Below, one piece after another: positions 50,010-64,000 of a stretch of DNA of 64,000 nt. This DNA comes from an uncultured Nitrospirales bacterium. Its GTDB lineage: Bacteria > UBA10199 > JADGCS01. The position numbers and the translations under genes were made by a program. The DNA is taken from assembly GCA_964526915.1 (NCBI GenBank), contig CAZGMS010000148.1, forward strand, positions 19,063 to 83,062, given 5' to 3'. The notes below the pieces were generated by a model. It was given only the letters and a program-made list of their open reading frames with translations, was not told the DNA's origin and did not search any database. Within the stretch, counting starts at the first letter, position 1; every line of letters begins with the position of its first letter.

Positions 50010-50385
50010 GGGGCCGATAACGGTTTCGACGGGGATGACGCGTGTATGATCGGCAGGCCGAGTTGAAGGCACTCGTTAAACGACTTCACAAATCCAATTG
50101 CAAACGATAACTTTGCACAGGCACCTGAGCTTGCTCTGGCTGCTTGACCTGATCTCATAGTAGATCACGTTCATGTTGTGGATCGCCTCAGTCGATGGCA
50201 TGGGCGTAACCAATTGGGGCTCGCTTGGTAGTTTTGTCTACTGGCTACCGGGCTAAATAAAAATGGGCTGGCCAAAAAAATCCGGTCACGGGGAAACTTT
50301 TTTGGTAAGATTCAAACTGTGGCTAAGCTTGTAGAAGGCATACACAAACATTTTCGGACGTGGGTTCGACTCCCACCGGCTCCAC
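50010..50385 (+). ncRNA. ssrA: tmRNA (ssrA), one-piece
   Basis: 5' GGGGCCGATAACGGTTTCGACGGGG; 3' GGACGTGGGTTCGACTCCCACCGGCTCCA(C) tRNA-like end; internal tag reading frame GCA AAC GAT AAC TTT GCA CAG GCA CCT GAG CTT GCT CTG GCT GCT TGA gives ANDNFAQAPELALAA. Confidence 0.85.
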
Positions 50386-50564: not shown

Positions 50565-51809
50565 ATGAACTTAAGCAACACGCAAATCAATAACGCCAAA
50601 TCTTTGGATTCACCCTACCGACTTTTTGATGGAGACGGTCTATATTTGGAAGTGCGCCCCAATGGTTGCAAGTGGTGGCGGTTCAAATTCAGATTTAACG
50701 GAAAAGAAAATCGCATCTCGTTTGGTGTGTATCCCGAAATCAGTCTTAAACGCGCACGCGAAAGACGCGAAGAGGCTCGTAGGCAAATTGCCGAGGGCAT
50801 CAACCCAAGCGAACATCGCAAGGCCACCAAATTCGCCAAGGCAGAAAGTGACGCCATGACGTTTGAGGTGATTGCGCGAGAATGGATTGAGCATAAATCC
50901 AAAAACAAAAAACAGTCGGGTGGATTTGTAGAACGCTACGCCAAAGATTTGCTGAGACGAATTGAATACGATCTGTTTGGCCCTTTGGGCAAAAAACCGA
51001 TCACCGAAATTACAGCACCAGAAATCTTGCGTGTTTTACGAAAGGTTGAAGAGCGCGGTGCGTACGAAACCGCTCACAGGCTTTTGCAAAACTGCGGACA
51101 GATTTTTCGTTACGCCATTTCTACCAGCCGTGCCAAATACGATCCGTCACGTGATCTTAAAGACGCCCTTGTGCCTGTTTTACGCAAACACCACGCCGCC
51201 ATTATTGATCCCAACGGTGTAGCGCATCTTTTAAGGGCCATTGATGGTTACAAAGGCAGCCCCATTGTTCGCGCCGCTCTTAAGCTTGCCCCACTCTTTT
51301 TTGTGAGACCTGGGGAACTCAGAAAAGCAGAATGGACAGAGATCAACCTTGATACCGCCGAGTGGAACATCCCTGCCGAGCGGATGAAGATGAAACAACC
51401 GCATCTTGTGCCGTTGTGCAGACAAGCCATTGAGGTTTTAAAAGACCTGCACACCGTTACAGGTTCGGGACAATATCTGTTCCCCAATCCACGCTGCAGA
51501 CTCAAACCCATGAGCGACAACGCCATCCTCGCCGCACTGCGCGGCATGGGGTACACAACTGATGAAATGACAGGTCATGGTTTTAGAGCAATGGCCAGAA
51601 CGATTATGGATGAAGTGCTTGGCATCCGTCCTGATTTTATTGAACACCAACTCGCTCACGCTGTCCATGATCCCCTTGGCCGAGCGTATAACCGCACGTC
51701 ACACCTTCTTGAACGCAAAAAAATGATGCAACAATGGGGGGATTATTTGGACAATCTTAGAATGAATGTGGGTGCGGAGGTGATACCGCTGAAAAGGGAG
51801 GCGCTGTGA
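50565..51809 (+). CDS. tyrosine-type integrase (phage P4-like, DUF4102 N-terminal)
   Basis: N-terminal LSDxxxxxAK...GLYLxVxPxGxKxWRFKxRxNGKE; catalytic-domain R...HxxR...Y region (HGFRAMARTIM, HQLAHAV). Confidence 0.85.
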   Translation: MNLSNTQINNAKSLDSPYRLFDGDGLYLEVRPNGCKWWRFKFRFNGKENRISFGVYPEISLKRARERREEARRQIAEGINPSEHRKATKFAKAESDAMTFEVIAREWIEHKSKNKKQSGGFVERYAKDLLRRIEYDLFGPLGKKPITEITAPEILRVLRKVEERGAYETAHRLLQNCGQIFRYAISTSRAKYDPSRDLKDALVPVLRKHHAAIIDPNGVAHLLRAIDGYKGSPIVRAALKLAPLFFVRPGELRKAEWTEINLDTAEWNIPAERMKMKQPHLVPLCRQAIEVLKDLHTVTGSGQYLFPNPRCRLKPMSDNAILAALRGMGYTTDEMTGHGFRAMARTIMDEVLGIRPDFIEHQLAHAVHDPLGRAYNRTSHLLERKKMMQQWGDYLDNLRMNVGAEVIPLKREAL

Positions 51810-52615
51810 AAACAAACGGCAAACTACTTCCACAGCAGACCCTGCTCATTGAACTTGAGCACGTTTTAGAAACATTCACATTGGAAGAACGCAAGAGCCT
51901 ATTCGAGTACTGGGAGCATCGTGACAAATCACATGTGTTAAGAAGAGACTGGTGGCACCAAAAATTCTACCGCAGAAAAGATGAAAATGAAAAAAATGAT
52001 GGTTTTGTTGAACAATCTTTTGCCCTGAAGAGCATTGTTGTTACAGAAAAACCATACACCAGAGAGATGTTTTATAATTCCGACGGAAGATTTGGTTTGC
52101 CTAATAAACCGGTTGCCTACTTTTCAGACTGGCTGACCGGCACATGTGAGATGCTACCCGCCTTTCGAGACAATCCTCTTCTGACATCAGAGGAGTTGGA
52201 ATTATACATGTCACGCAAACTTGACCCTGATCCCACGGGGGGAAAGCTATGTGGTTATCCACGTGTATTCTTCTTACATCCTGATGTTGTGATACTAAAT
52301 TTATCCAGGCCGACAGCTTCTTTTTTTAGTATTTTGCAAAACAAATCCAGAGATCTGTTTGGCTTTGTTGTCAGCAGTATAATGAGTAGAGACAAATCGT
52401 GTTATCTATTAACCCAGGTTATTTCTTCTTTTGCCCACAAGTTCGGATTTCATGGGGCATTATATCGCTCGGTTCGCATTCCTCGTGATTGGCACTTTAC
52501 CGGTGGTGAAAATTTGGTTTTGTTTTGTGACCAAATCAATGGTGTGCCCATTGTAGAAAGAAGGATGGATAGGATTGAACGTAACAAAACTCACAACTTG
52601 AAAAACAATCAATGA
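51806..52615 (+). CDS. RES-domain-like protein (putative NAD-targeting toxin family), co-transcribed with the integrase
   Basis: GTG start overlaps the integrase stop (GTGA) with GGGAGG SD; GRFGLPNKPVAYFSDWLTGTCE and RSVRIP...ENLVLFCD resemble the R...E...S core of RES domains. Confidence 0.4.
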   Translation: MKTNGKLLPQQTLLIELEHVLETFTLEERKSLFEYWEHRDKSHVLRRDWWHQKFYRRKDENEKNDGFVEQSFALKSIVVTEKPYTREMFYNSDGRFGLPNKPVAYFSDWLTGTCEMLPAFRDNPLLTSEELELYMSRKLDPDPTGGKLCGYPRVFFLHPDVVILNLSRPTASFFSILQNKSRDLFGFVVSSIMSRDKSCYLLTQVISSFAHKFGFHGALYRSVRIPRDWHFTGGENLVLFCDQINGVPIVERRMDRIERNKTHNLKNNQ

Positions 52616-52630
52616 ATCAAAAGGAGTCTC

Positions 52631-52951
52631 ATGGCTAAGGGTGGTCACAGGGAAGGTGCGGGGAGAAAAAAGGGAAGCGCAAACCTTCTTACTCAAAAAC
52701 TTCGCGAACAGATCAACGCGCCCAGGCTGATTCGGTTGTTACAAGAAATTGCCGATGGCACGGTTGAAGGTGGTGCGTCTGTGGCCGAGAGAAAAGACGC
52801 GGCCATCGCCCTGCTACGCAAGGTATTGCCAGATTGCCGAACGGAAGATGTTGGGGCATCAACTGCCCCCACGACGGTTGTTATTCACAGCAATGTGCCG
52901 ATGGGGTTTAGTAGGAATAAAGAGAATTTTGATCTAATAAAGCATCAGTAA
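52631..52951 (+). CDS. hypothetical protein with basic N-terminus (MAKGGHREGAGRKKGS)
   Basis: ORF with AAGGAG SD; the N-terminus resembles phage small DNA-binding / terminase-small-subunit leaders; otherwise unassignable. Confidence 0.3.
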   Translation: MAKGGHREGAGRKKGSANLLTQKLREQINAPRLIRLLQEIADGTVEGGASVAERKDAAIALLRKVLPDCRTEDVGASTAPTTVVIHSNVPMGFSRNKENFDLIKHQ

Positions 52952-53008: not shown

Positions 53009-54634
53009 CTAATTTGAACGGGTGATCCGCCACCGTCCTTTAAGTGATGATCCGTCATAAAATATCTTTCCGTTCTTTTTTAGTTCCTGAAGTATGTTGG
53101 AAATATCTTGAGGCAGATATTCAGAGAAGCCACTGATCAGGTCTTCGCGCCTAGACGGTTTCCCGGCTCGTATATGATTCAGTACCAATTCTTTGATCTG
53201 GTCGCGAGTCAGGCCTTTTAATCTTGTATGTTTTCCACTTTGACCAATTGTTTCGTAATAGCGGTGGGAAAGAATGTATTTGGTACCACTCGTTTTACCA
53301 ACAGCTTCAATAATACCCGCTTTAAGAAATTTTTTCTTTAAGTCGGCATTAACCATGGATTCCCCGCGTCTAACACGCTCCAATTCCAAAATTTCGTGAA
53401 CATCCAAAAGAATTTGATTTTCGCGTGCGACCTTTTCCAAAAACAAAACAAACGACTTGTCCTGCACCTGTGCTGGAATTTTAATGACAACCGAATAATG
53501 GTCACTACTCGACAAATCAGGAAGCCCTTTGCCATCACGAATACAGTGCGCAAAAATATCGTCCATTCCCTGGCCGGATCGTTCGACGAGCCCCACCTTT
53601 TCAAGCGTTTCGGCAAGTCGTCGGTTACGCCAACTCTTTTGATCAATCACATTTTCGGGTGTAATGCCCGGCAAAAACCCACCGGGGCTTTCAATCGTAA
53701 TGGACTTAGAATTGGCAAGAATGAATATCGAGCGACCACGGATTGAATAATCGCGGTGCGTGATGGCGTTTAACCAAGCCTCGCGAACTGATTTTTCATC
53801 AAACGCCATGATCTCTTTTTGAAAAAGCCCGTCTTGATACGGAATACGAAAGTTACGGGCATTAATAATCTGCCAAACGACATCATGAATTTTAAAATAG
53901 GGCTCGCGCCAACATTCGCGAAAGTCGTGGTGCGTCTGTTCCGCTGTGCTACGCCACTCAAAGATGATCTCTGAGTCAGCCAACAGTCTGTCCAAAAATG
54001 ATTTTTTACCCAAGAGAATCAGGCAGGCGTAATTCAGCCGGTTGTTTTCTATGAGATTGAGGGCATCCAAAATTTTGTGGGTGCTGTAGTTGAGAATTTC
54101 TGGACGTTTCTTTTTGTCGGCCCAAATACTTTTTAAGTTCTTAAGCGCATCGGGATCAAGATCATCAGTGGTCATGCCCTCAACAATAGTGGCCGAAAAA
54201 TCGGGCTGTACCTCATTAAGAATTTGACGTGTTTTATGGTCATCCATTTCAACAAGCGATTCACCGACTCTCATGGGATAGGTGTAATCGCCTGTTGATC
54301 GAACGCGCTGTCCTTTGTGTCTGGCGGGGATATGAAAGACGAGCACGCGCCCGTCTGAATGATTTAGTTCTTCAACATCGATTCTGATTTTAAGCTTTTG
54401 CAACAGTTCGTGTGGGAGTTTGTTATAAGTTCCAGAAAAGGCATTTGTGCCAACGACAACCCGACCATCGGTCACTCCCAATATCAGTTTGCCACCACCT
54501 TCGTTGGCTAGGGCTGCGCAATAATCGGGCAAATCCTTGTCTTTGCTAAAGCTGTTTTTTGCCGTCTTGAATTCAAGATTCAAGCCTTCTGGTTGTTTCA
54601 GCCAATGGGTGAATTGTTCGAGAGTGGTTTTCAT
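53009..54634 (-). CDS. AlbA_2 (Schlafen-like) + HATPase_c_4 + C-terminal wHTH protein
   Basis: N-terminal EGLNLEFKTAKNSF...ALANEGGGKLILGV (AlbA_2 core); central HRDYS...GRSIFI...ITIESPGG (HATPase_c_4); ATG 54634 with GGAGGG SD. Confidence 0.55.
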   Translation of the reverse strand: MKTTLEQFTHWLKQPEGLNLEFKTAKNSFSKDKDLPDYCAALANEGGGKLILGVTDGRVVVGTNAFSGTYNKLPHELLQKLKIRIDVEELNHSDGRVLVFHIPARHKGQRVRSTGDYTYPMRVGESLVEMDDHKTRQILNEVQPDFSATIVEGMTTDDLDPDALKNLKSIWADKKKRPEILNYSTHKILDALNLIENNRLNYACLILLGKKSFLDRLLADSEIIFEWRSTAEQTHHDFRECWREPYFKIHDVVWQIINARNFRIPYQDGLFQKEIMAFDEKSVREAWLNAITHRDYSIRGRSIFILANSKSITIESPGGFLPGITPENVIDQKSWRNRRLAETLEKVGLVERSGQGMDDIFAHCIRDGKGLPDLSSSDHYSVVIKIPAQVQDKSFVLFLEKVARENQILLDVHEILELERVRRGESMVNADLKKKFLKAGIIEAVGKTSGTKYILSHRYYETIGQSGKHTRLKGLTRDQIKELVLNHIRAGKPSRREDLISGFSEYLPQDISNILQELKKNGKIFYDGSSLKGRWRITRSN

Positions 54635-54816: not shown

Positions 54817-56694
54817 TCACCACAATTCATCTGCAACGATTCCTGTAATGTCGGAAATAATTCTCTTTAATTCTTGAACTTTTGTATTTGTACTATCTTC
54901 AAGATACGTACTGAGGTCGTTTTGGCAAAAATTGATAACATGGAAGAGTCCCTTTTGAATGCCAAGATAAATTTCTAAATCACCTTCTTTTAAGACATAA
55001 GTTCCATTCGGATATTCCTCTTCAATTTTGGCAACAACATCAGTATGGTTTGCTAAAAATTGGGAAGCAAGTTGCACAGTATTTATTTTGGTAGCAGTTT
55101 CGGTTGGATAATACTTCCAAGCAGAGTCAAGGTCGGTTATAAAAAATGTTTTCAAACCAAACGGCTCAAATAAACTTCTCCATTTTGAATCGTTATTTTT
55201 GTCATTGATATCCAGAATTGTAATATCTTGAACTAACCCTTTTTTGATATTCATTTCTATCTCACCAAGTAAAGCGCGAAAAAAATATCGGTCAGAATCA
55301 CCTTCAACGAGCAATATTTTGCTCCCAAAAAATGCGTGGGTAGATCGCTTGTTGTCCAGAATTTTTACGAGCCATTTTTGATCAGTGGTAATGTTAGGCC
55401 TATTGATTTTTGTGTAACCATTGTTATCAAGAGAAAGGCGTACCACATTACTAATAGTTGCAGAATTTATAAGAGATTCCGAATGGGTTACAAGAATATA
55501 CTGGCAACCTTGTTCGATATTTAGTTTTTCTATGACACGGAGATATTCGCTCTGAAATTGATAGTGTAAATGGATTTCTGGCTCATCAATGATAACAAGG
55601 CCACCTTTCAAATCGCCTCGTCCATACGCCTCGAAAACTAAATGTGTTATGGCTTTTTGTCCTGCGCTTAGAGAGTTTATATTTGAAACGATTCTATTTC
55701 TTTTCGTATCAACAAATGAAAAAGTGAAGTTCCACTGGGAATAATCAAGGAGTTTAATTTCAACTTTGAGATTAACAATATTGAGCTTGTCATTAATGTT
55801 TTTTATAAAATCTAGATCGTTGGCTGCGGTTTCGCATTCTTTTTGATCTCTTTTGGTTCTTATCAAGTCAAAGCACGTTCCTGCCATTCTCAATCTAACC
55901 AAACTAAAAATTGATGGCTCGCTATTTTCGGCCGAGTTCATGCTCCTAGAGTATTCCGCCAATCTGATTTCTGAAATTTGTTTTGGGGCTGTATTCCCAC
56001 CACCAAGAGAAACATGAGCAGCGTAGGAGTTGTAATTTCTATATCCGCCAATCAATGCAAATGATTCGGCTAAATTGTTTATTGGCGTGCCTGGATTTTC
56101 TTCGTTATATATTTCTATTATCTCTTTATACAAGTTGTATGCGCTTAAATATGTATAGCCAATGTCTTGGTTGGTTTGGATAGCATAAGTTTTATTCACG
56201 CTGTCTAAAGTGATATCAAGTTGATATTCTCCCTGAGGTGTGCCGTCAGCAAACATTTGTTCTGCAGAATAAAGGCCGATTATTGGTGCGAGCTTATCCT
56301 TATTGTTCTTGAGGTGTTGGATATTCGCTCGGTCAATATCATCCAATTCCACTACAACTCGAATTTTTTGTTCCCTGTCCTCAAAATCGTAATTTCTATC
56401 AAGACGAAAGTCCCGGTAATATTGAACATTCGTTATTTTCGATAAAATGTTCCTTTTGTCATTAACATTAATCGTTGTCCTTTTTGTGTATAAATCCGCA
56501 TTTCTGTTGTACGGAACAAAAACAACTCTCCTAAAAATAAAATTGATCACTTCTAACACTGTTGATTTGCCAGAGCCATTTTGACCAATCAGAATGCTTA
56601 AATTTTCATCAAAGGTGATTTTTTGCGCATGCGCAATGTTAGCAACATAGGCGAAGCTAAGCACATTTGAAATTTGGAGAGCTTTGATTTTCAT
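54817..56694 (-). CDS. OLD-family nuclease-like protein (N-terminal ABC-type ATPase + C-terminal Toprim/DUF4435-like domain)
   Basis: Walker A GQNGSGKST, signature LSAGQK, Walker B VIIDEPEIHLH, H-loop VTHS; C-terminal ILLVEGDSDRYFF Toprim motif. Confidence 0.6.
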   Translation of the reverse strand: MKIKALQISNVLSFAYVANIAHAQKITFDENLSILIGQNGSGKSTVLEVINFIFRRVVFVPYNRNADLYTKRTTINVNDKRNILSKITNVQYYRDFRLDRNYDFEDREQKIRVVVELDDIDRANIQHLKNNKDKLAPIIGLYSAEQMFADGTPQGEYQLDITLDSVNKTYAIQTNQDIGYTYLSAYNLYKEIIEIYNEENPGTPINNLAESFALIGGYRNYNSYAAHVSLGGGNTAPKQISEIRLAEYSRSMNSAENSEPSIFSLVRLRMAGTCFDLIRTKRDQKECETAANDLDFIKNINDKLNIVNLKVEIKLLDYSQWNFTFSFVDTKRNRIVSNINSLSAGQKAITHLVFEAYGRGDLKGGLVIIDEPEIHLHYQFQSEYLRVIEKLNIEQGCQYILVTHSESLINSATISNVVRLSLDNNGYTKINRPNITTDQKWLVKILDNKRSTHAFFGSKILLVEGDSDRYFFRALLGEIEMNIKKGLVQDITILDINDKNNDSKWRSLFEPFGLKTFFITDLDSAWKYYPTETATKINTVQLASQFLANHTDVVAKIEEEYPNGTYVLKEGDLEIYLGIQKGLFHVINFCQNDLSTYLEDSTNTKVQELKRIISDITGIVADELW

Positions 56695-57659
56695 AAGCTT
56701 CTCTCCACAATTTTGATTTTATGTTCGGTGGGACCGTAGAGCTTGTCACCCGAATCATGTCGTTTCTTATGCTCCCCGTAATATTCGGTAAGTTTTGTGC
56801 ATATACGGTTTTTCAGATCAGGAAATTCATTAAAGGGATAATATGTCACTGTGTTTTTTACTGACTCAAGAAAGGATTTTAATTCGCTGGTCTGCTGTGA
56901 TTGGGCATCTGTAAACAAAAACCGGTGTTTGCTATGCGCAGCATTGAACTCTTTTTTAACCGCGGGTCTTATTTCATTACGAAACATTCCAATGTAAACG
57001 TCACAGTTCTTCACAGCTTCCAAATAAAGTTCTTCCGGGGGCTCTGGGGCTGGGCTGGCATCTGATTCGAATACAAACACATGATAGAGTCGTCCAATCA
57101 CTGGATCAGTTTCTATGAGAAATTTTAGAAGTTTTCGTTCATGCAAAAACTCATCCTGTGCAGAACTCAAAAAAACCTTGAGTTTATCATTGAGCTTAAG
57201 GCCCATCTCTTCCCATAATATGTGACAGTTTAATTTTGTTTTGCTTATTTCTATCTCAATTTGATGTGCTTGTTGATCCTTTATTCTGCCGGCTGTCATT
57301 GTGTCACCACGCATCAAATCATCAATGACCTGAAATAGATGATCCTTGTTATGAAAAGAAAACAACTCCTGCTCAACCATCGTCCTAAAATCACCACTTG
57401 GCAGTACATTGTACTCCACACAAAGGCGCCTTACCTCGCCAATGCAATCATCGACAATTCTTCTTCTTGTGGCCATAAATAATTCAATCTGATTATGATG
57501 CCTCATGCCGGAATTTAATGTACCCCTTGCGTTATGCCCATTATCTATTTTTATTTTGTCCTTTCGTGACTCATCAAGGTGAGCTTCAGAAATTCTTGTT
57601 TTATGATTTTGCCACAAATCAAAAATGCGTTTTTCAAATGGATTAAGTTGATTGTTCAT
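56691..57659 (-). CDS. hypothetical protein, operon partner of unknown function (possible C-terminal DUF4062-like Rossmann region)
   Basis: ATGA overlaps on both sides; no confident motif; the C-terminal segment LYHVFVFESDA...CDVYIGMFRNE weakly resembles the DUF4062 nucleoside-deoxyribosyltransferase-like pattern. Confidence 0.3.
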   Translation of the reverse strand: MNNQLNPFEKRIFDLWQNHKTRISEAHLDESRKDKIKIDNGHNARGTLNSGMRHHNQIELFMATRRRIVDDCIGEVRRLCVEYNVLPSGDFRTMVEQELFSFHNKDHLFQVIDDLMRGDTMTAGRIKDQQAHQIEIEISKTKLNCHILWEEMGLKLNDKLKVFLSSAQDEFLHERKLLKFLIETDPVIGRLYHVFVFESDASPAPEPPEELYLEAVKNCDVYIGMFRNEIRPAVKKEFNAAHSKHRFLFTDAQSQQTSELKSFLESVKNTVTYYPFNEFPDLKNRICTKLTEYYGEHKKRHDSGDKLYGPTEHKIKIVERSL

Positions 57660-60600
57660 TTCCCCACCCCCTCCACAATTTTGATTTCGTCATCAGTGAG
57701 GCCGTAGAGGGAATAGACAAGCTGGTCGATTTTCTTTTCGTATTCTTTGACTTGAACCTGTTTTTGCGGATTTTTTAAGTAGTCATCGGATTTGGTGATC
57801 TCTAATATTTTATCAACAATTTCGATGAGGGGTTTTTGATTTGATTCTGAAACCGTTACAAGCGGCAAATTTATTAATGGCTCTTTATCAATCTGAAAAT
57901 TATTTCCCTGCATTTTGCCTTTGTGGCGCAACCAAAATACAACTAACTTTGAATTTAACAAGGCAACCAAATATTTAAGACTCATTCTTTCCGTTTTGAT
58001 TACATAAAATGTTGCGGAAACGTAACTGTCAAAATCAACATAACTAAAAGTTGGCTCTTCACACTTTCTTGCAACAATAATTTTTTCTCCGATAAAGTAT
58101 CTCTCATCTCTGGATCTGTGCAACCCGTATGGTTTATTGTCAGAAGTGATTACTTTTGAAAATTGATCGAGATGTTTTTTGATATTGGGATAGCCTTCAA
58201 TCTTTTTTACGTTTTTAAAACTTGAGTCGGTATAAATCACCCATTCTTTATTATTTGGATTCCCATACCAGCGAAATAATTCTTTGGTCGTATAAGATGG
58301 TTTAATTAGGCCACGCTCATTTTCTGTAAAAGGTATTCTCTCTCTTTCAGAATTGCTAAGTACAAATATGCCATCTCCAATACTGTAATTACCACCCAAC
58401 TTTGTCTGGCTTGCTTTGTTAACATAATCTTGAGGATATACGATGCCTTGCTTAACCTCTGTATCACAATCCAACTGAATATTTTGTTTGGAACATATTT
58501 TTTCTAAAACTGGGCTGACAGCTGAATTGCTAAAAGTGAGGGGTTTATTCACCATCTCTGTTCTGATTATATTTGGTTCTAAGTATTCTGTTTTATTATT
58601 TTGGCATTTGCCCAAAACAGCTAGAACATCCTCGAACTGCAATTCCTGCTCAATGAGCCTGCGGAAATCAAAATTATAGTTTTCATTGCTAGCGTCTTTT
58701 TGAAAAATCATCACCATAGTTTGAATGCCTGCACATTCAAATATTTTGTAGTCTCCAAAATCAACTAAATGCAAAATCTGGGTGTCACTCATTATCTTGT
58801 TCCTGAGCACAGAGGCACCATAGCTCGTCACCCAGTTGTTTTGAGCAATAAAAGACAAAATGCCAGTGTTGTTTCTGAGAAGATCAATGCTCTTACATGC
58901 AAAGAAATACCACAGGTCCATTTTCCCCTGATAATAGGGGGACTTTCTAAGCCCATCGAAAGCCGATTTTTGGGTATATTCTTTAATATACGGCGGATTC
59001 GCGATTACGATATCGAACCCGCCATTCTCAAACACCTCAGCAAAGTGAAATTTCCAAAGAAAAAATGGTTTTGTTTTTGATTTCTTGAATTGCTCTAGTT
59101 TCTTGAGTTCTGAAGTTTTGTTTTGTTCCTGAAGCGTGGCTTCAATAAGGCACCATTCCATCTTATCGATTTGATTTCTCAGTTTCTTTTTATTCTCTTT
59201 TTCATTCGTTTCAAAATACTCTTTATGCAACCGTTTTAATTCGTCACTCAAAGATTGAGCCCCTAACTGTTCGTATAAGTTAAGCTCTCTTTGCTGCTTT
59301 GTCTTTTCAAAGCCTTTTAACTCGGTAGCTAAAGCCATTTTTCTCGCATCCAATGCTTTTCTACAATTTTCCAATACTAGTAAATCGGCAGGTTTTTCTA
59401 AGTTATTCTTCCTCATCCAATTCGGATTTCTCTGATAATACTTTAGCCGCTCACTATCATTTTCCTGCAATTGCAGATCAATTTTACTAATTTGAGCAAC
59501 AATGTCTTGTTTTGATGTTTGAGAAAGATATTTTTCATCAAATAGTTTTACACCTTCATACTCCTCCAACAGACTATTGCCCTGCATGATTTTGAAATCC
59601 AAATTCGGTAAAGGCTGAATATCGTCTTTGTCCTCGTCAACCAATAGAGAAATAAAGAAACGTAACTTTGCTATTTCTACGGCAATTTGTTGAACGTCCA
59701 CGCCGTAAATGCACCTTTGAATTAAATACAGCTTCCTCCAATAATCAGGTTTCTTTGTCTGAAAATATTCTTTTATCTCTTTTATTGTCTTGGCTTTAAG
59801 GTTTTGGTCGGGGATCGCATCTGCAGATTTTAGCTGGGCTTGTTCCCAGAGTTTATTGTCGCGATCTACTTTATTAAGAATGAAAACCAGTTTGTTGAGC
59901 ACCCCCATGGGGAAGGCACCAGACCCAACCGCAGGATCAACAATTTTGACACTTTCAACCAGCTCTACCAACTTCTTTTTTTCCTGATCATTAAAAAGAT
60001 TTTCTTGGCTCTCGACAGAGAATAATACGCCCAATTTTTCATCCAGATTTTCTATGCCCTCAAGGTGTGTTTTGAAATAGACTTTGAGCGATTCGCTCAC
60101 CATGTAATCAACAATCTCCCTTCGCGTGTAATAACTACCTGTGGCCTTGCGAGCCGTGGTGGAGGTTTCGGGATTAAAGCTAGCCAGAAGGTTTTCAAAA
60201 ACTCTACCCAAAAGTTCAGGGTCCAGGGCAACCTCGGCATCGTCTGGTGAGTTTTCGTCAATTGTGAAGTTAAACGAAGACAGAATATTTAGCAGTCCGC
60301 TGACCAGATATTTTTTGTTTTTAGTGTCAAAATCTTTATTGAGATCAACCTTTTTCTCTTGGCTGAAAAACAGTTCATTGGGAACAACTGGCTGATTTTT
60401 TTTTGTTCTAGAAAATCCGTCTATGATAATTCCATTGGGCCTATCATCCAAACACTCAAAGAGACCGCCGTTCAAAAATGGAATGCTCTCAAAATATTTT
60501 TTCAAATCTTCCGGACTTTTAAAAAGCTCCTGATAACGAAAGACGTATTGATTACCAAAATCGGAATTGTATCCTTTGTGTCCTCTCGCCTCGCTACCAA

Positions 60601-61423
60601 AGTCCCGTTCTTCTTTTTTGGTGCTCAGCGTCGCAAAAAACAAATTCTGAAGAATGCCCGTGTAATAAGTGGTAGCTTCATCATCTAAACTCTTGAGAAT
60701 TGAATCGATGCTCTTTTTTTCAAACAATTCTCTTGGGACCAGACCTCGCTCTCGCATAAACCAGATAAAAATCATTCTGGTAATCAGTCTGATAACGGCA
60801 ATGTTTTTGCCGTTATCCTCTGCTATCGCATCTTTGGGAAATTGGGTTGTTTTTACAGCCCAAAAATACCAATAAGAAATGCGCTCGTAGAATTCTTTGG
60901 TAACCTTATCTACCGAGAAAGCATCTTTAATTTTTTCTAAACTGGAAAAATCACCGTCGCCGATTCGTTGTTTAAATGTTTTATTCGTAACTTGCAGTTC
61001 AGAACTGACAAAATAAGTAAATCGGCGGAAATTATTCCACTGCCGACGGGTGCCGATTGATTCTGGATAGACGAGAGAAAAACGAAAGTTTCCACTTGGA
61101 TCGTGGAAAACAAAAATACCTGCCGAAAACATCTGGTTTTCTGCCGACCTCAAGATGCTTTTAGCTTTTTCATACTGAGCCTTTTTGCCCAAACGCTCAG
61201 AAAGCTCTTTTTTAACCTTAAAGGAGCATACGATTAGACTGTCACCATCAGAAAAATTGATTTCACCAAGTTTCGTTCCATTTCCAAAGTCAGGGTCATC
61301 AAAGTGAGTATAATTCTCTCCGCCAGGCTTATATTGGCGGGTTTTTACTCGAAAATATTTGTTCAGCGTTTCAACAGAAAAATGTTCAATGAGGGCTTCT
61401 AAAATTTGTCTGGTTTCACTCAT
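57656..61423 (-). CDS. large N6-adenine DNA methyltransferase, PglX / DrmMI / Type IIG-like (about 1255 aa)
   Basis: SAM motif I VDPAVGSGAF, motif IV NPPY (IANPPYIKEY), C-terminal TaqI_C-like target-recognition region (LVALLNSKLVVFWL). Confidence 0.7.
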   Translation of the reverse strand: MSETRQILEALIEHFSVETLNKYFRVKTRQYKPGGENYTHFDDPDFGNGTKLGEINFSDGDSLIVCSFKVKKELSERLGKKAQYEKAKSILRSAENQMFSAGIFVFHDPSGNFRFSLVYPESIGTRRQWNNFRRFTYFVSSELQVTNKTFKQRIGDGDFSSLEKIKDAFSVDKVTKEFYERISYWYFWAVKTTQFPKDAIAEDNGKNIAVIRLITRMIFIWFMRERGLVPRELFEKKSIDSILKSLDDEATTYYTGILQNLFFATLSTKKEERDFGSEARGHKGYNSDFGNQYVFRYQELFKSPEDLKKYFESIPFLNGGLFECLDDRPNGIIIDGFSRTKKNQPVVPNELFFSQEKKVDLNKDFDTKNKKYLVSGLLNILSSFNFTIDENSPDDAEVALDPELLGRVFENLLASFNPETSTTARKATGSYYTRREIVDYMVSESLKVYFKTHLEGIENLDEKLGVLFSVESQENLFNDQEKKKLVELVESVKIVDPAVGSGAFPMGVLNKLVFILNKVDRDNKLWEQAQLKSADAIPDQNLKAKTIKEIKEYFQTKKPDYWRKLYLIQRCIYGVDVQQIAVEIAKLRFFISLLVDEDKDDIQPLPNLDFKIMQGNSLLEEYEGVKLFDEKYLSQTSKQDIVAQISKIDLQLQENDSERLKYYQRNPNWMRKNNLEKPADLLVLENCRKALDARKMALATELKGFEKTKQQRELNLYEQLGAQSLSDELKRLHKEYFETNEKENKKKLRNQIDKMEWCLIEATLQEQNKTSELKKLEQFKKSKTKPFFLWKFHFAEVFENGGFDIVIANPPYIKEYTQKSAFDGLRKSPYYQGKMDLWYFFACKSIDLLRNNTGILSFIAQNNWVTSYGASVLRNKIMSDTQILHLVDFGDYKIFECAGIQTMVMIFQKDASNENYNFDFRRLIEQELQFEDVLAVLGKCQNNKTEYLEPNIIRTEMVNKPLTFSNSAVSPVLEKICSKQNIQLDCDTEVKQGIVYPQDYVNKASQTKLGGNYSIGDGIFVLSNSERERIPFTENERGLIKPSYTTKELFRWYGNPNNKEWVIYTDSSFKNVKKIEGYPNIKKHLDQFSKVITSDNKPYGLHRSRDERYFIGEKIIVARKCEEPTFSYVDFDSYVSATFYVIKTERMSLKYLVALLNSKLVVFWLRHKGKMQGNNFQIDKEPLINLPLVTVSESNQKPLIEIVDKILEITKSDDYLKNPQKQVQVKEYEKKIDQLVYSLYGLTDDEIKIVEGVGK

Positions 61424-64000
61424 AGTTTCTTGTTTTCAATAGCAATGATGATTTCCCTTTTTTGATCTTTTAGCCGACTATTTTCTTTGACTAAATATTC
61501 TTCACCAAGTTCGTCTTTTAATTCCAAAAGATCTTTGACGAAAGCTTCTCTAATATTGGCAATTCGACGCAAGGTATAATCTGCCAAAGTGCCGTAGCTG
61601 AGAATGTCTTCTTTCAGCGTGCGCAGAAACTTTTTACAGGGCATCAGATTCTCGCTGGCGCTTTTGATCAGAAAGTTGAGATTGTTCAGCGCCTTCATCT
61701 CCAAGCTTTGCTCACTTGTTGGGCCTAAACGATAATTTCTGAAGTCCTGAATTGCCTGATAGGCCTGCCAAAATTGGTCGGTGTTCCATTGCAACGGTTT
61801 TTCATCCGGCAAACAAGCGATTTTTTCAAACACGTCTTCAAAAACAGTTTGATAGGATTCAACCTTTTCTGCGTCAGTGCGGGCTCCACTTACATACAGC
61901 CGCCCCTTTTTAAAAAACACCAAGAGTTCGTTTTCGTTGTACCCCTTCGAGGATTTAATGCGTGGCGGGTAATTATTAAGATTTTCTATCAATTCGGGAT
62001 GTTCTTTTTTAATTCTCAAAAACTCCTTCAAAACCTTAGTATAAAAACCTTCCTCCTCTTGATCGTCCGGATTTTGCTGAATACGCTTAAATAGACCTGC
62101 AGGGGTAGGTTCCTCTTCTATGTCAAAAATTTTGCAGTCTTCACCAAGTGCGTTGTGAATCAGGAACATCTTGTTGGCCGCGATCTCACGCGACTTAACA
62201 AGTTCCGCACCCTGCTCCGTGGGGAAAAAGTTAACAATGTATAACTCCTCAAAAACCTTCTTGCTGATACGATTGATTCGCCCCAGTCGCTGGATCACGC
62301 GCACGGGATTCCAAGGAATATCGTAGTTGATGACCATTCCAGCCCGATTAAGGTTGAATCCTTCGGAAATCTTGTCTGAAGAAAGAAGAAGCTCAAAGTC
62401 ATTCTCCTGCTCCGGATAAGAAGCATCGAAGTTTTTATTTATTTTAACAATTTTTGAAGCAGGCAAATCCCCTGCGACAACTAGCATTTTACCGCCATAA
62501 TGTTTTGAGAGTTTTTTTTCTAAATAGAGCACTGTATCAACGTATTCTGTAAAAATAATAATTTTCCGTTTGGGGGCCCCCTTTTTCGACGGCTTGGAAA
62601 ATTCATCCTCAAGGTGGTCTATTAGACAGGCTGCTTTTGGATCATGCTTTATCAAAGCTAATTTTGAAAGCTTGCATAATACTTCATCAAATAATTTTAA
62701 ATCCAACTCTATTGCTTCAATAAACCCTGCTCTATTTTTGAATTCCTTGAGTTTATAGCGCTTGTGGCTTTTAGGGTATTCACCTCGACTAATTTTTTTC
62801 TCATACTCAAGCAGATATTTTTCAATCTCATCATCGCCCAATTCGTAAATTTTGTCCAAAAGAGCCCGATCCAGTATATATTCATCGGTTTTCTTGATAA
62901 ATTGATAACTGTTTTCGGTAATTATTTTAAAATTCTTGATGCTTTGCTCAAAAGAGCCAAACGAACTTTCAAAACGCTTAACGAGCAAGCGGCGCATAAA
63001 ATCAAACAAATTTCGTTGTTGAATAAACTGACGATTGTCTTCCTCATTCCTTTTTTCATGGGGATCTCTTTCATATTCAAACGGCCGGTAGATAGCTCCT
63101 TTGAAACGTCCACCATTTTCGGGGTCTCCAAAATAGTTTTCAATAATTTCTGAGTAAAATTCTGACTGTTCTTTGTTTAATTCAAAGAACCATTCTTTTG
63201 GGCCTGCAACTTTTGATAATTCTTTGACCTCGTTTTTATAAAATGGATTGTTTTGCAAATCCAAACGATTGCGCCTGATCGTCACCGGTTCAATGACATT
63301 CCTGATTTGCCTGGCTAGGTAATGCGCTCTTCCTGTGATTTTTTTGAGATCAACAGTTCCATCCCCAAATAAGGTCTTATAGTAATTTTGTGCTTTAGTT
63401 CTTTTGTTCACATCTGAAGAATTCCAATATTTTTTAATATAACCAAGTCGGTCAAAAACACCCTTAAAGCCTTTGAATTGGTCAACGAGATTGCTTTCCA
63501 ATGTGATCGATGATTTTTTGGGGGTAATGAACAACTTAAGAAGCGAAAGAATGTCACCTGGTCGATTGTTAAATGGTGTTGCAGTCAATAGAATGACCTG
63601 TTTATTGCGGCAAATATTTTTGAGGATTTCATAATCTTGAGTGTCTTGATTTCTAAAACGATGGGCTTCATCAACAATCACAACCTCGATTTCTTTTGTT
63701 TTGTTAACATACTCTAGAGTGCTTTCCAGATCACCAAGGGACCGAACCTCCCAATTTTGAAGCCCGAATTCTTCGGTATATTTATTCCAACCTGAGTTCT
63801 TATTTCTGTCTCCAACAAGTCCGGGTGGACAGATAATGACGCCTCGCGTTTTGAGCTGTTTTGCAATGGCACAAGCAATGATGGTCTTACCGAGTCCCAC
63901 AACATCAGCCACAATGACGCCATGATTGTTTTCTATAATAGACAGTGCCTGCCTGACCGCATCGAGTTGATATTGGTAGGGTATATAGCCATTTTCTTCC
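61420..64000 (-). CDS. SNF2-family (SF2) helicase, 5'-truncated by the window end
   Basis: Q-motif/motif I PYQYQLDAVRQAL...VADVVGLGKT, motif II VIVDEAHRFRN, motif III LLTATPFNN, helicase C motifs FTEYVDT and QRLGRINR. Confidence 0.7.
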   Translation of the reverse strand, partial: EENGYIPYQYQLDAVRQALSIIENNHGVIVADVVGLGKTIIACAIAKQLKTRGVIICPPGLVGDRNKNSGWNKYTEEFGLQNWEVRSLGDLESTLEYVNKTKEIEVVIVDEAHRFRNQDTQDYEILKNICRNKQVILLTATPFNNRPGDILSLLKLFITPKKSSITLESNLVDQFKGFKGVFDRLGYIKKYWNSSDVNKRTKAQNYYKTLFGDGTVDLKKITGRAHYLARQIRNVIEPVTIRRNRLDLQNNPFYKNEVKELSKVAGPKEWFFELNKEQSEFYSEIIENYFGDPENGGRFKGAIYRPFEYERDPHEKRNEEDNRQFIQQRNLFDFMRRLLVKRFESSFGSFEQSIKNFKIITENSYQFIKKTDEYILDRALLDKIYELGDDEIEKYLLEYEKKISRGEYPKSHKRYKLKEFKNRAGFIEAIELDLKLFDEVLCKLSKLALIKHDPKAACLIDHLEDEFSKPSKKGAPKRKIIIFTEYVDTVLYLEKKLSKHYGGKMLVVAGDLPASKIVKINKNFDASYPEQENDFELLLSSDKISEGFNLNRAGMVINYDIPWNPVRVIQRLGRINRISKKVFEELYIVNFFPTEQGAELVKSREIAANKMFLIHNALGEDCKIFDIEEEPTPAGLFKRIQQNPDDQEEEGFYTKVLKEFLRIKKEHPELIENLNNYPPRIKSSKGYNENELLVFFKKGRLYVSGARTDAEKVESYQTVFEDVFEKIACLPDEKPLQWNTDQFWQAYQAIQDFRNYRLGPTSEQSLEMKALNNLNFLIKSASENLMPCKKFLRTLKEDILSYGTLADYTLRRIANIREAFVKDLLELKDELGEEYLVKENSRLKDQKREIIIAIENKKL

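Follow-up and report, generated by a model that had tools for sequence, protein, structure and literature searches.

The stretch of DNA analysed here (the window: 64,000 nucleotides (nt) of contig CAZGMS010000148.1, from an uncultured Nitrospirales bacterium) carries a gene for a 322-amino-acid (aa) protein embedded in an operon that also encodes a helicase-nuclease, an adenine methyltransferase and an OLD-family nuclease. The gene lies on the minus strand at 56691-57659, begins with ATG in the window's list of open reading frames (ORFs), and encodes an N-terminal helical domain, a C-terminal DUF4062 (TIR-like) domain and a duplicated tail, as judged from that list, Pfam, full-length homologs and an AlphaFold model with a predicted local distance difference test (pLDDT) of 90.1. 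We consider the gene to be real because its full length is conserved in distant relatives and the fold of its product is predicted with confidence.

A public contig encoding an identical protein reaches past the end of the window and shows the full operon, in the order HTH_3 regulator (326 aa), PLD+SNF2 helicase-nuclease (1107 aa), Eco57I-type N6-methyltransferase (1255 aa), 322-aa protein and OLD nuclease (625 aa). All genes of the operon within the window are on the minus strand. The PLD(HKD)-SNF2 helicase-nuclease, identified by Pfam, PADLOC and the public contig, occupies 61420-64000 and runs off the window end; its N-terminal PLD domain and the upstream HTH_3 gene lie past 64000 (L001:333-4783), and the GTG start at 63912 is an artefact. 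The N6-adenine methyltransferase (57656-61423) has a TaqI_C specificity domain by Pfam and matches the PADLOC models REase_MTase_IIG (3e-80) and DrmMI (3e-30), while the OLD protein (54817-56694) is an ABC-ATPase/TOPRIM nuclease matching Pfam AAA_15, AAA_21 and OLD-like_TOPRIM as well as the PADLOC models AriA, Old and GajA (~1e-24); no OLD partner gene (helicase, separate TOPRIM, HNH) was identified beside it.

The genes are closely packed. Plus-strand TCAT at 57656-57659, which is ATGA on the coding strand, joins the methyltransferase stop to the start of the 322-aa gene, and a second TCAT at 56691-56694 joins the stop of that gene to the OLD start, bearing out the ATGA overlaps on both sides that were described in an original prediction made from the sequence alone. 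A 4-nt overlap likewise occurs at the helicase/methyltransferase junction (61420/61423), Shine-Dalgarno-like (SD) GGAG(G) motifs lie 6-18 nt 5′ of the start codons of both the 322-aa and OLD genes, and a scan for promoters and terminators revealed no internal signal over shuffled expectation.

Domain architecture and predicted fold

DUF4062 (PF13271) is the sole Pfam match of the 322-aa protein, covering residues 161-228 with an E value of 3.8e-8. The original prediction had called the resemblance to DUF4062 and nucleoside deoxyribosyltransferases (NDTs) faint; scoring 33.9 bits where the gathering cut-off is 24.7, it is a genuine family match, and membership of the DUF4062 family is secure. 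The same prediction had recognised no Walker, nuclease or HTH motif in the protein, in agreement with Pfam, which detects no such family, and no match was obtained from PADLOC (E ≤ 0.1), NCBIfam or PHROGs.

The AlphaFold model, built on a 77-sequence alignment, has a predicted template modelling score of 0.68 along with its high pLDDT; a single-sequence run gave a pLDDT of 42.6. It comprises five long helices (residues 7-45, 51-82, 89-103, 105-116 and 120-156) followed by five beta-alpha units (160-302). The helices form a new all-helical N-terminal domain (residues 1-157, 57189-57659 on the minus strand; hereafter the N-domain) that matches nothing in Pfam, PADLOC, NCBIfam or PHROGs and retrieves only generic helical bundles with Foldseek. 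Within this domain conservation is highest at the motif R45-G46-x-L-x-S50-G51, located in the loop that links helices 1 and 2, and residue E151 is invariant too. The DUF4062 domain (residues 159-302, 56754-57185, minus strand) is predicted to fold as a Rossmann-type, TIR/NDT-like parallel five-stranded sheet of beta-alpha repeats. Consistent with this assignment, Foldseek with the model matched BcmB, RCL, MilB and TIR-STING, the best PDB matches being the cytidine monophosphate (CMP) and hydroxymethyl-CMP N-glycosidases BcmB and MilB together with RCL/DNPH1. Viral structure models (BFVD) and PHROGs contained no phage-borne relatives beyond generic NDT-type, TIR and CAP12-type folds, and a PDB sequence search with the single 322-aa protein gave chance matches only. 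The tail (residues 303-322 and the stop, 56691-56753, minus strand) is modelled with low confidence, pLDDT being 59 at residues 301-310 and below 50 from residue 306, and is absent from homologs.

Relatives and modularity

The description of the protein as an orphan in the original prediction was nearly right. A word-indexed search of 5.8 billion proteins returned only the protein itself ('hypothetical protein ACD_62C00169G0005', uncultured bacterium); HMMER over 1.84 billion representatives, on the other hand, gave 494 matches, nearly all to residues ~159-300, and among them four full-length relatives: P0002 (35% identity), P0004 (34%), P0027 (25%) and P0087. The full-length alignment retrieved P0001 and P0027 only from the word-indexed protein database, and one scan of genome contigs and two of metagenome contigs yielded DUF4062-domain relatives, never the N-domain; the ORFs of two short contigs, L038 and L046, added no information. 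In ~135 of the best 150 matches DUF4062 stands at the extreme N-terminus, making its C-terminal placement in the 322-aa protein unusual.

A further relative, P0007, matches residues 1-167 only and thus has the N-domain in common, with 31% identity over 160 aa. There the N-domain is followed not by DUF4062 but by a CAP12/Pycsar-type TIR domain (PF10137, CAP12-PCTIR_TIR, E 7.8e-25) and a winged helix-turn-helix (wHTH), an architecture that matches the PADLOC single-gene candidate PDC-S35 (7e-21); the 322-aa protein itself matches none of the PDC-S35 models. One N-domain serving two different TIR-like effectors is as would be expected of a sensor or regulatory module. The idea of a sensor put forward in the original prediction thus finds a place only within the protein, whose own helical N-domain is probably its sensor or regulatory part, and not at the level of a subunit of the surrounding module.

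The genomic settings of the relatives are varied. P0002 is preceded by a Hypoth_Ymh protein and an unannotated 456-aa protein, P0004 is flanked by unannotated genes, and P0007 lies near GIY-YIG and HigBA genes; no methylase, SNF2 helicase or OLD gene neighbours any of these three relatives with readable context. The OLD protein had no tblastn match among 57 DUF4062-anchored loci, BLAST comparisons of the 322-aa protein, whole and in halves, with the cargo genes of related operons and with the neighbours of its homologs revealed nothing and no common partner, and no flanking repeats like those described below occur around the homologs in L026-L028.

Two side observations concern the wider family. 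The Hypoth_Ymh protein 5′ of P0002 (L026:183-953) matches the N-terminal part of the PDC-S35 model (E 2.7e-9), and its falling under one model with P0007 hints at a helical module common to these abortive-infection-like proteins. In P0016 and P0080 a DUF4062 domain with a short active-site loop (see below) is preceded by an N-terminal hydrophobic segment that looks TatA-like by eye, and in P0016 it is followed by TPR-like repeats, also by eye; these proteins could be membrane-anchored DUF4062 variants.

A direct repeat of the methyltransferase 3′ end

The top direct-repeat family found in a repeat search of the operon consists of two 39-nt copies, one at the 3′ end of the 322-aa gene (56703-56741) and the other at the 3′ end of the methyltransferase gene (57671-57709). 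The copies are identical at 32 of 39 positions, including an exact 17-mer, and are spaced 968 nt apart, compared with a gene length of 969 nt; in simulations 0.023 pairs of repeated 17-mers were expected in the 6.8-kb region, against the one observed. In both proteins the repeat corresponds to the 13 codons preceding the final three or four, the methylase ending in SLYGLTDDEIKIVEGVGK and the 322-aa protein in KLYGPTEHKIKIVERSL, each followed by the stop, and it continues into the SD and the ATGA junction. The methyltransferase copy encodes LYGLT..EI.IVE, the motif with which methylases of this family natively end, as seen also in those of L030, L032, L033 and L034. Homologs of the 322-aa protein, by comparison, stop ~20 residues before this point and do not have the motif. 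Between the tail and the methylase copy there are two synonymous and five non-synonymous substitutions, a pattern that is roughly neutral outside the SD-containing 17-mer.

The simplest reading of these features is that a cassette carrying DUF4062 was inserted close to the 3′ end of the methylase gene, apparently duplicating both that end and the original methylase-to-OLD junction. The 322-aa gene would have ATGA on both sides because the insertion duplicated this junction; the coupling is then a by-product of the gene's arrival, and therefore is not evidence of subunit status. We posit that the 39-nt duplication is the molecular footprint of a defence operon gaining an effector while retaining translational coupling.

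Variable cargo beside a conserved helicase-methylase core

Searching the methylase against plasmids by tblastn, together with annotation look-ups, revealed eight related loci whose helicases and methylases are homologs of the window's, with 25-40% identity. Accompanying genes differ from locus to locus. The Lactococcus and P. nigrescens loci have no genes besides the helicase-methylase core; plasmid p1 of Microcystis aeruginosa NIES-2481 (L030:11879-13517) carries a nucleotidyltransferase and a SLATT protein between methylase and helicase; and two cyanobacterial plasmids have in common an unknown protein of ~435 aa, 52% identical between them. In Prevotella (L031) the core is accompanied by an AlbA_2-HATPase_c_4 protein, an ABC-ATPase and HNH pair and a GNAT protein, and in Parabacteroides (L033) by an AlbA_2-HATPase_c_4 protein and, after the methylase, an unknown protein, a canonical TIR_2 protein, another unknown and a superfamily 1 helicase. 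As far as gene content indicates, this is a conserved helicase-methylase core with a slot for varied putative suicide effectors, namely TIR, DUF4062, OLD, nucleotidyltransferase with SLATT, and ATPase with HNH. Next to the cargo-free core of P. nigrescens (L036:11311-15648) lie an Mpi-family invertase and two gene fragments with Eco57I domains, which suggests phase-variable specificity shuffling.

Published surveys describe back-up effectors inserted in BREX-related operons (OLD/PARIS, HNH) and in hmaABC (Septu, PARIS, Ppl). The eight related loci resemble these cases in that suicide-type effectors are co-oriented in or beside a helicase and methylase core; the BREX survey text that was scanned for it contains no occurrence of 'TIR'. 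The operon differs from BREX-related systems in that no DUF499 or DUF3780 marker was detected, and assignment to BREX-related type 2 was not adopted on that account. Assignment to the Hma system was rejected as well: HmaB is of 5-methylcytosine type and HmaA has a C-terminal PD-(D/E)xK domain, whereas here the methylase is of the N6-adenine Eco57I type and the helicase has an N-terminal PLD domain.

Active-site residues

DUF4062 has been characterised in two defence systems. Swarozyc of Klebsiella pneumoniae (KpSwz; PDB 10wc/11cq/11cv) is a DUF4062 TIR-like NADase that is activated by the phage portal and acts by abortive infection, its structure has been solved, and the E97A mutant is dead (bioRxiv 10.64898/2026.05.01.722283). 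In Evangelion, from the Staphylococcus aureus plasmid pMW2, each of the Eva01 changes F11A, E87A and W162A and truncation of the auxiliary (AUX) region abolishes defence, and nicotinamide adenine dinucleotide (NAD+) falls with the wild type only (bioRxiv 10.64898/2026.06.25.731849). DUF4062 is N-terminal in both, and both require a C-terminal AUX region (bioRxiv 10.64898/2026.05.01.722283; 10.64898/2026.06.25.731849).

We aligned the 322-aa protein with Eva01 as encoded on pMW2 (L029:3863-4837) and with KpSwz (PDB chain 10wc_A), which the profile of relatives matches at E 2.4e-13, and counted residue frequencies over 77 DUF4062 relatives. The beta1 aromatic Eva01 F11 corresponds to F163 (codon 57171-57173, minus strand), within a V-F-L-S-S motif and Phe in 76 of the 77 relatives. 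The sequence around KpSwz E97 is S-F-T-E-K-A-F and that of Eva01 S-Y-T-E85-M-E87-Y88; at the same site the 322-aa protein has P-A-V-K235-K236-E237-F238, as checked at the codon level, in a shortened beta3-alphaC loop where P-A-V-K replaces S-x-T-E. Eva01 E87-Y88 is therefore represented by E237-F238 (E237 codon 56949-56951, minus strand), E237 being Glu in 76/77 relatives and Ala in KpSwz. It follows from the alignment that the two founding studies mutated different glutamates, KpSwz E97 being equivalent to Eva01 E85, and Eva01 E87 to KpSwz A99.

All full-length relatives of the 322-aa protein fall in a subclade of ~20 sequences with the short loop (V-x-x-E-[FY]), in which the first Glu, at the KpSwz E97 position, never occurs and the second, at the E237 position, always does. 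A comparison by hhalign of the DUF4062 profile with the Parabacteroides TIR_2 protein left the active-site helix unaligned, at a probability of 0.5%.

A proposed inserted DUF4062 effector

[quoted passage not shown] They differ in that the domain order is reversed, with the accessory domain N-terminal and DUF4062 C-terminal from residue 159; in that the accessory domain is unrelated in sequence; and in that the 322-aa gene belongs to a four-gene operon whereas Swarozyc stands alone. The likeness to Eva01 consists in the DUF4062 core, the F11/F163 and E87-Y88/E237-F238 equivalences and the pairing of the core with a co-adapted auxiliary region; only Eva01, however, has E85, the Q50-W51-E52 motif and a C-terminal AUX with W162, in place of which the 322-aa protein has its helical N-domain. 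No similarity between this domain and the AUX regions of Swarozyc or Evangelion was detectable.

We lean, with some reserve, towards the reading that the 322-aa protein is a self-contained two-domain DUF4062 abortive-infection effector whose gene was spliced, in the manner of a cassette, into the methyltransferase gene at its 3′ end in a PLD-SNF2 helicase/Eco57I-type methylase operon. It is probably an autonomous back-up effector rather than a specificity subunit; stand-alone action, as in Swarozyc and Evangelion, would fit the relatives that occur without the operon and the insertion scar, although the 322-aa gene is itself translationally coupled within an operon. The protein would be translated from a polycistronic mRNA via an ATGA-coupled junction copied from the methylase-to-OLD junction, and its N-domain, in the role of the C-terminal AUX region of Swarozyc and Evangelion, would hold the TIR-like domain in an inactive oligomer and sense a phage cue. 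Activation would then lead to hydrolysis of NAD+ or its phosphorylated form (NAD(P)+) and growth arrest of the infected cell, in parallel to the OLD nuclease and not as its subunit, with the methylation-based restriction core as the first line and the 322-aa protein as the second.

The original prediction had instead proposed a specificity or sensor subunit of the module, and had called the gene obligatorily co-translated. In a fuller form of this proposal the protein would serve the OLD nuclease, the helicase-methylase or both as a dedicated partner, a sensor, adaptor or guard linking the state of the restriction complex to the firing of nuclease or NADase. The ATGA coupling on both sides and throughout the operon, the lack of internal promoter or terminator signals above chance and a guanine plus cytosine (GC) content like that of the neighbours are consistent with such a role; TIR-type genes recur beside the methylase family, as with the TIR_2 gene of L033, other methylase/helicase loci (L004, L005; see below) contain embedded DUF4062 fusion genes, and the copied methylase C-terminal motif could in principle dock on the same partner. 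Against this, DUF4062 is an effector-type NADase domain in the two characterised systems, P0002, P0004 and P0007 lack adjoining OLD, methylase and helicase genes, and the 39-nt insertion scar by itself yields both ATGA overlaps. Homologous helicase-methylase operons hold unrelated, non-homologous cargo at the same position, the changes in the tail are roughly neutral apart from the SD-containing 17-mer, and the protein matches no OLD partner (GajB, AriB, PtuB) and no specificity subunit in PADLOC, Pfam or NCBIfam. We consider a subunit role unlikely.

Several observations nevertheless weigh against an autonomous, NAD(P)+-hydrolysing effector. The GC content of the gene resembles that of its neighbours and the four-gene operon is tightly coupled, such that functional integration after insertion may be conceived. 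The exact 17-mer holds the ribosome-binding site, and its conservation could partly reflect selection for translational coupling. Genomic context is readable for three relatives only, two of them on short contigs. The residue aligned with the proven catalytic KpSwz E97 is Lys235 (codon 56955-56957, minus strand), a position that is Glu in 50/77 relatives and equivalent to Eva01 E85, and the Eva01 Q50-W51-E52 motif aligns with P208-E209-E210, in which Glu alone is kept and Trp has become Glu209. That E237 alone sustains NADase chemistry with Lys235 at the position of the KpSwz-type Glu is the weakest step of the argument. The two acidic positions (K235, E237) thus make conflicting predictions of NAD(P)+ hydrolase activity, and from the alignments NADase competence of the 322-aa protein is plausible.

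The same residues bear on a different view, in which the TIR-like domain is not an NADase but either inert, as an oligomerisation scaffold or nucleotide-binding sensor, or dedicated to other chemistry, such as signal synthesis like that of ThsB in Thoeris or N-glycosidic cleavage of (modified) nucleotides like that of MilB, BcmB and DNPH1. Lys235, the shortened loop with P-A-V-K for S-x-T-E, and the ranking of BcmB, MilB and RCL/DNPH1 as best PDB matches in Foldseek all fit this view, as does the remark of Osinski et al. that DUF4062 operon variants may have more complex mechanisms (bioRxiv 10.64898/2026.05.01.722283). Retention of F163 argues for NADase activity, as does invariance in the subclade of E237, the counterpart of the Eva01 residue E87 whose mutation abolishes NAD+ depletion. 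Pfam found no receptor domain for a synthesised signal (SLOG, SAVED, STING, Macro) in the operon proteins. NDT-family enzymes have a Glu nucleophile after beta4. The fold matches that of NDT and the MilB-BcmB-DNPH1 N-glycosidases, and in the DUF4062 family consensus at the place after beta4 (R-L-x-F-x-K...) no conserved Glu is apparent. On these grounds we regard a non-NADase domain as rather unlikely.

It might also be asked whether the gene is a decaying passenger, the remnant of a cassette whose transcription and translation continue although its function has been lost. The family is extremely rare and one acidic active-site residue has been lost; the reading frame is intact, however, the SD is strong, the model has high confidence over both domains, and relatives at 25-35% identity share its hallmark residues. 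Decay is accordingly highly improbable.

A variation on these themes is a guard wired to the restriction module, in which the N-domain or the methylase-derived tail would monitor the helicase-methylase or OLD proteins, and a phage disabling them would fire the TIR-like activity through an active site that is non-canonical in having E237 but not the KpSwz-type Glu, resulting either in NAD(P)+ depletion or in a signal licensing OLD. We judge this quite improbable; if true, it would amount to a class of TIR-like proteins that guard restriction and to a second catalytic solution in the DUF4062 family.

Whichever chemistry applies, an effector inserted in the operon would add to a family recognised only in 2026 as TIR-like NADases of phage defence and of the human vault protein TEP1. 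The locus represents a DUF4062 branch with an N-terminal accessory domain, a shortened active-site loop and one of two acidic residues. What is new here is a variant, in both architecture and active site, of a family described only very recently, and the footprint of its acquisition is informative. As each founding study called a different acidic residue catalytic, the 322-aa protein, keeping one, is a natural experiment on which Glu suffices, and the finding would gain weight if chemistry with E237 alone, or a link to the restriction module, were to be shown.

DUF4062 and AlbA_2 on a common chassis

A gene for a 541-aa protein with AlbA_2 (Schlafen-like), HATPase_c_4 and wHTH domains by Pfam lies 182 nt downstream of the OLD gene (53009-54634, minus strand), and the AlbA_2-HATPase_c_4 gene recurs with the helicase-methylase core in the Prevotella (L031) and Parabacteroides (L033) loci. 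Of 57 loci anchored on the closest DUF4062 domains, 33 have, right after DUF4062, a sequence that matches residues ~146-385 of this protein, and Pfam identifies DUF4062-HATPase_c_4-wHTH/Fic-like_C fusions, including P0005 and P0006. DUF4062 fused to the body of the AlbA_2 protein indicates that DUF4062 and AlbA_2 are alternative heads on one chassis. The fusions (P0005, P0006, L004, L005) contain the closest DUF4062 domains outside the full-length family, at 36-41% identity, and like the 322-aa gene occur in methylase/helicase loci. They differ in that their DUF4062 is N-terminal on the chassis and has the long loop with S-x-T-E, whereas in the window a gene of its own encodes the chassis, headed by AlbA_2.

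In an Actinomycetota metagenome-assembled genome (L004:6279-20017) a DUF4062-HATPase_c_4-Fic-like_C gene lies between genes for a DUF6079 ATPase and an N6/N4 methylase, starting 5 nt after the former and overlapping the latter by 4 nt; a Ser/Thr kinase and an SNF2 helicase come next, indicating a BREX/Pgl-like locus with a DUF4062 component. In L005, 3 kb separate the fusion gene from a homolog of the methylase and helicase of the window.

Island surroundings

The operon lies within a low-GC island (GC 35-41% compared with ~50% in the flank) that starts with a transfer-messenger RNA gene at 50010-50385 (tag ANDNFAQAPELALAA) followed by a tyrosine integrase at 50565-51809. The whole defence island appears to have integrated at ssrA, where GC falls from ~50% to 35-45%. 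In 51806-52951 on the plus strand, a gene for a RES-domain protein (269 aa, Pfam E 7e-6) overlaps the integrase stop and precedes a 106-aa ORF, and the two may constitute a RES toxin module. RES-Xre toxins degrade NAD+, and the RES gene would presumably encode another NAD+-targeting toxin in the island.

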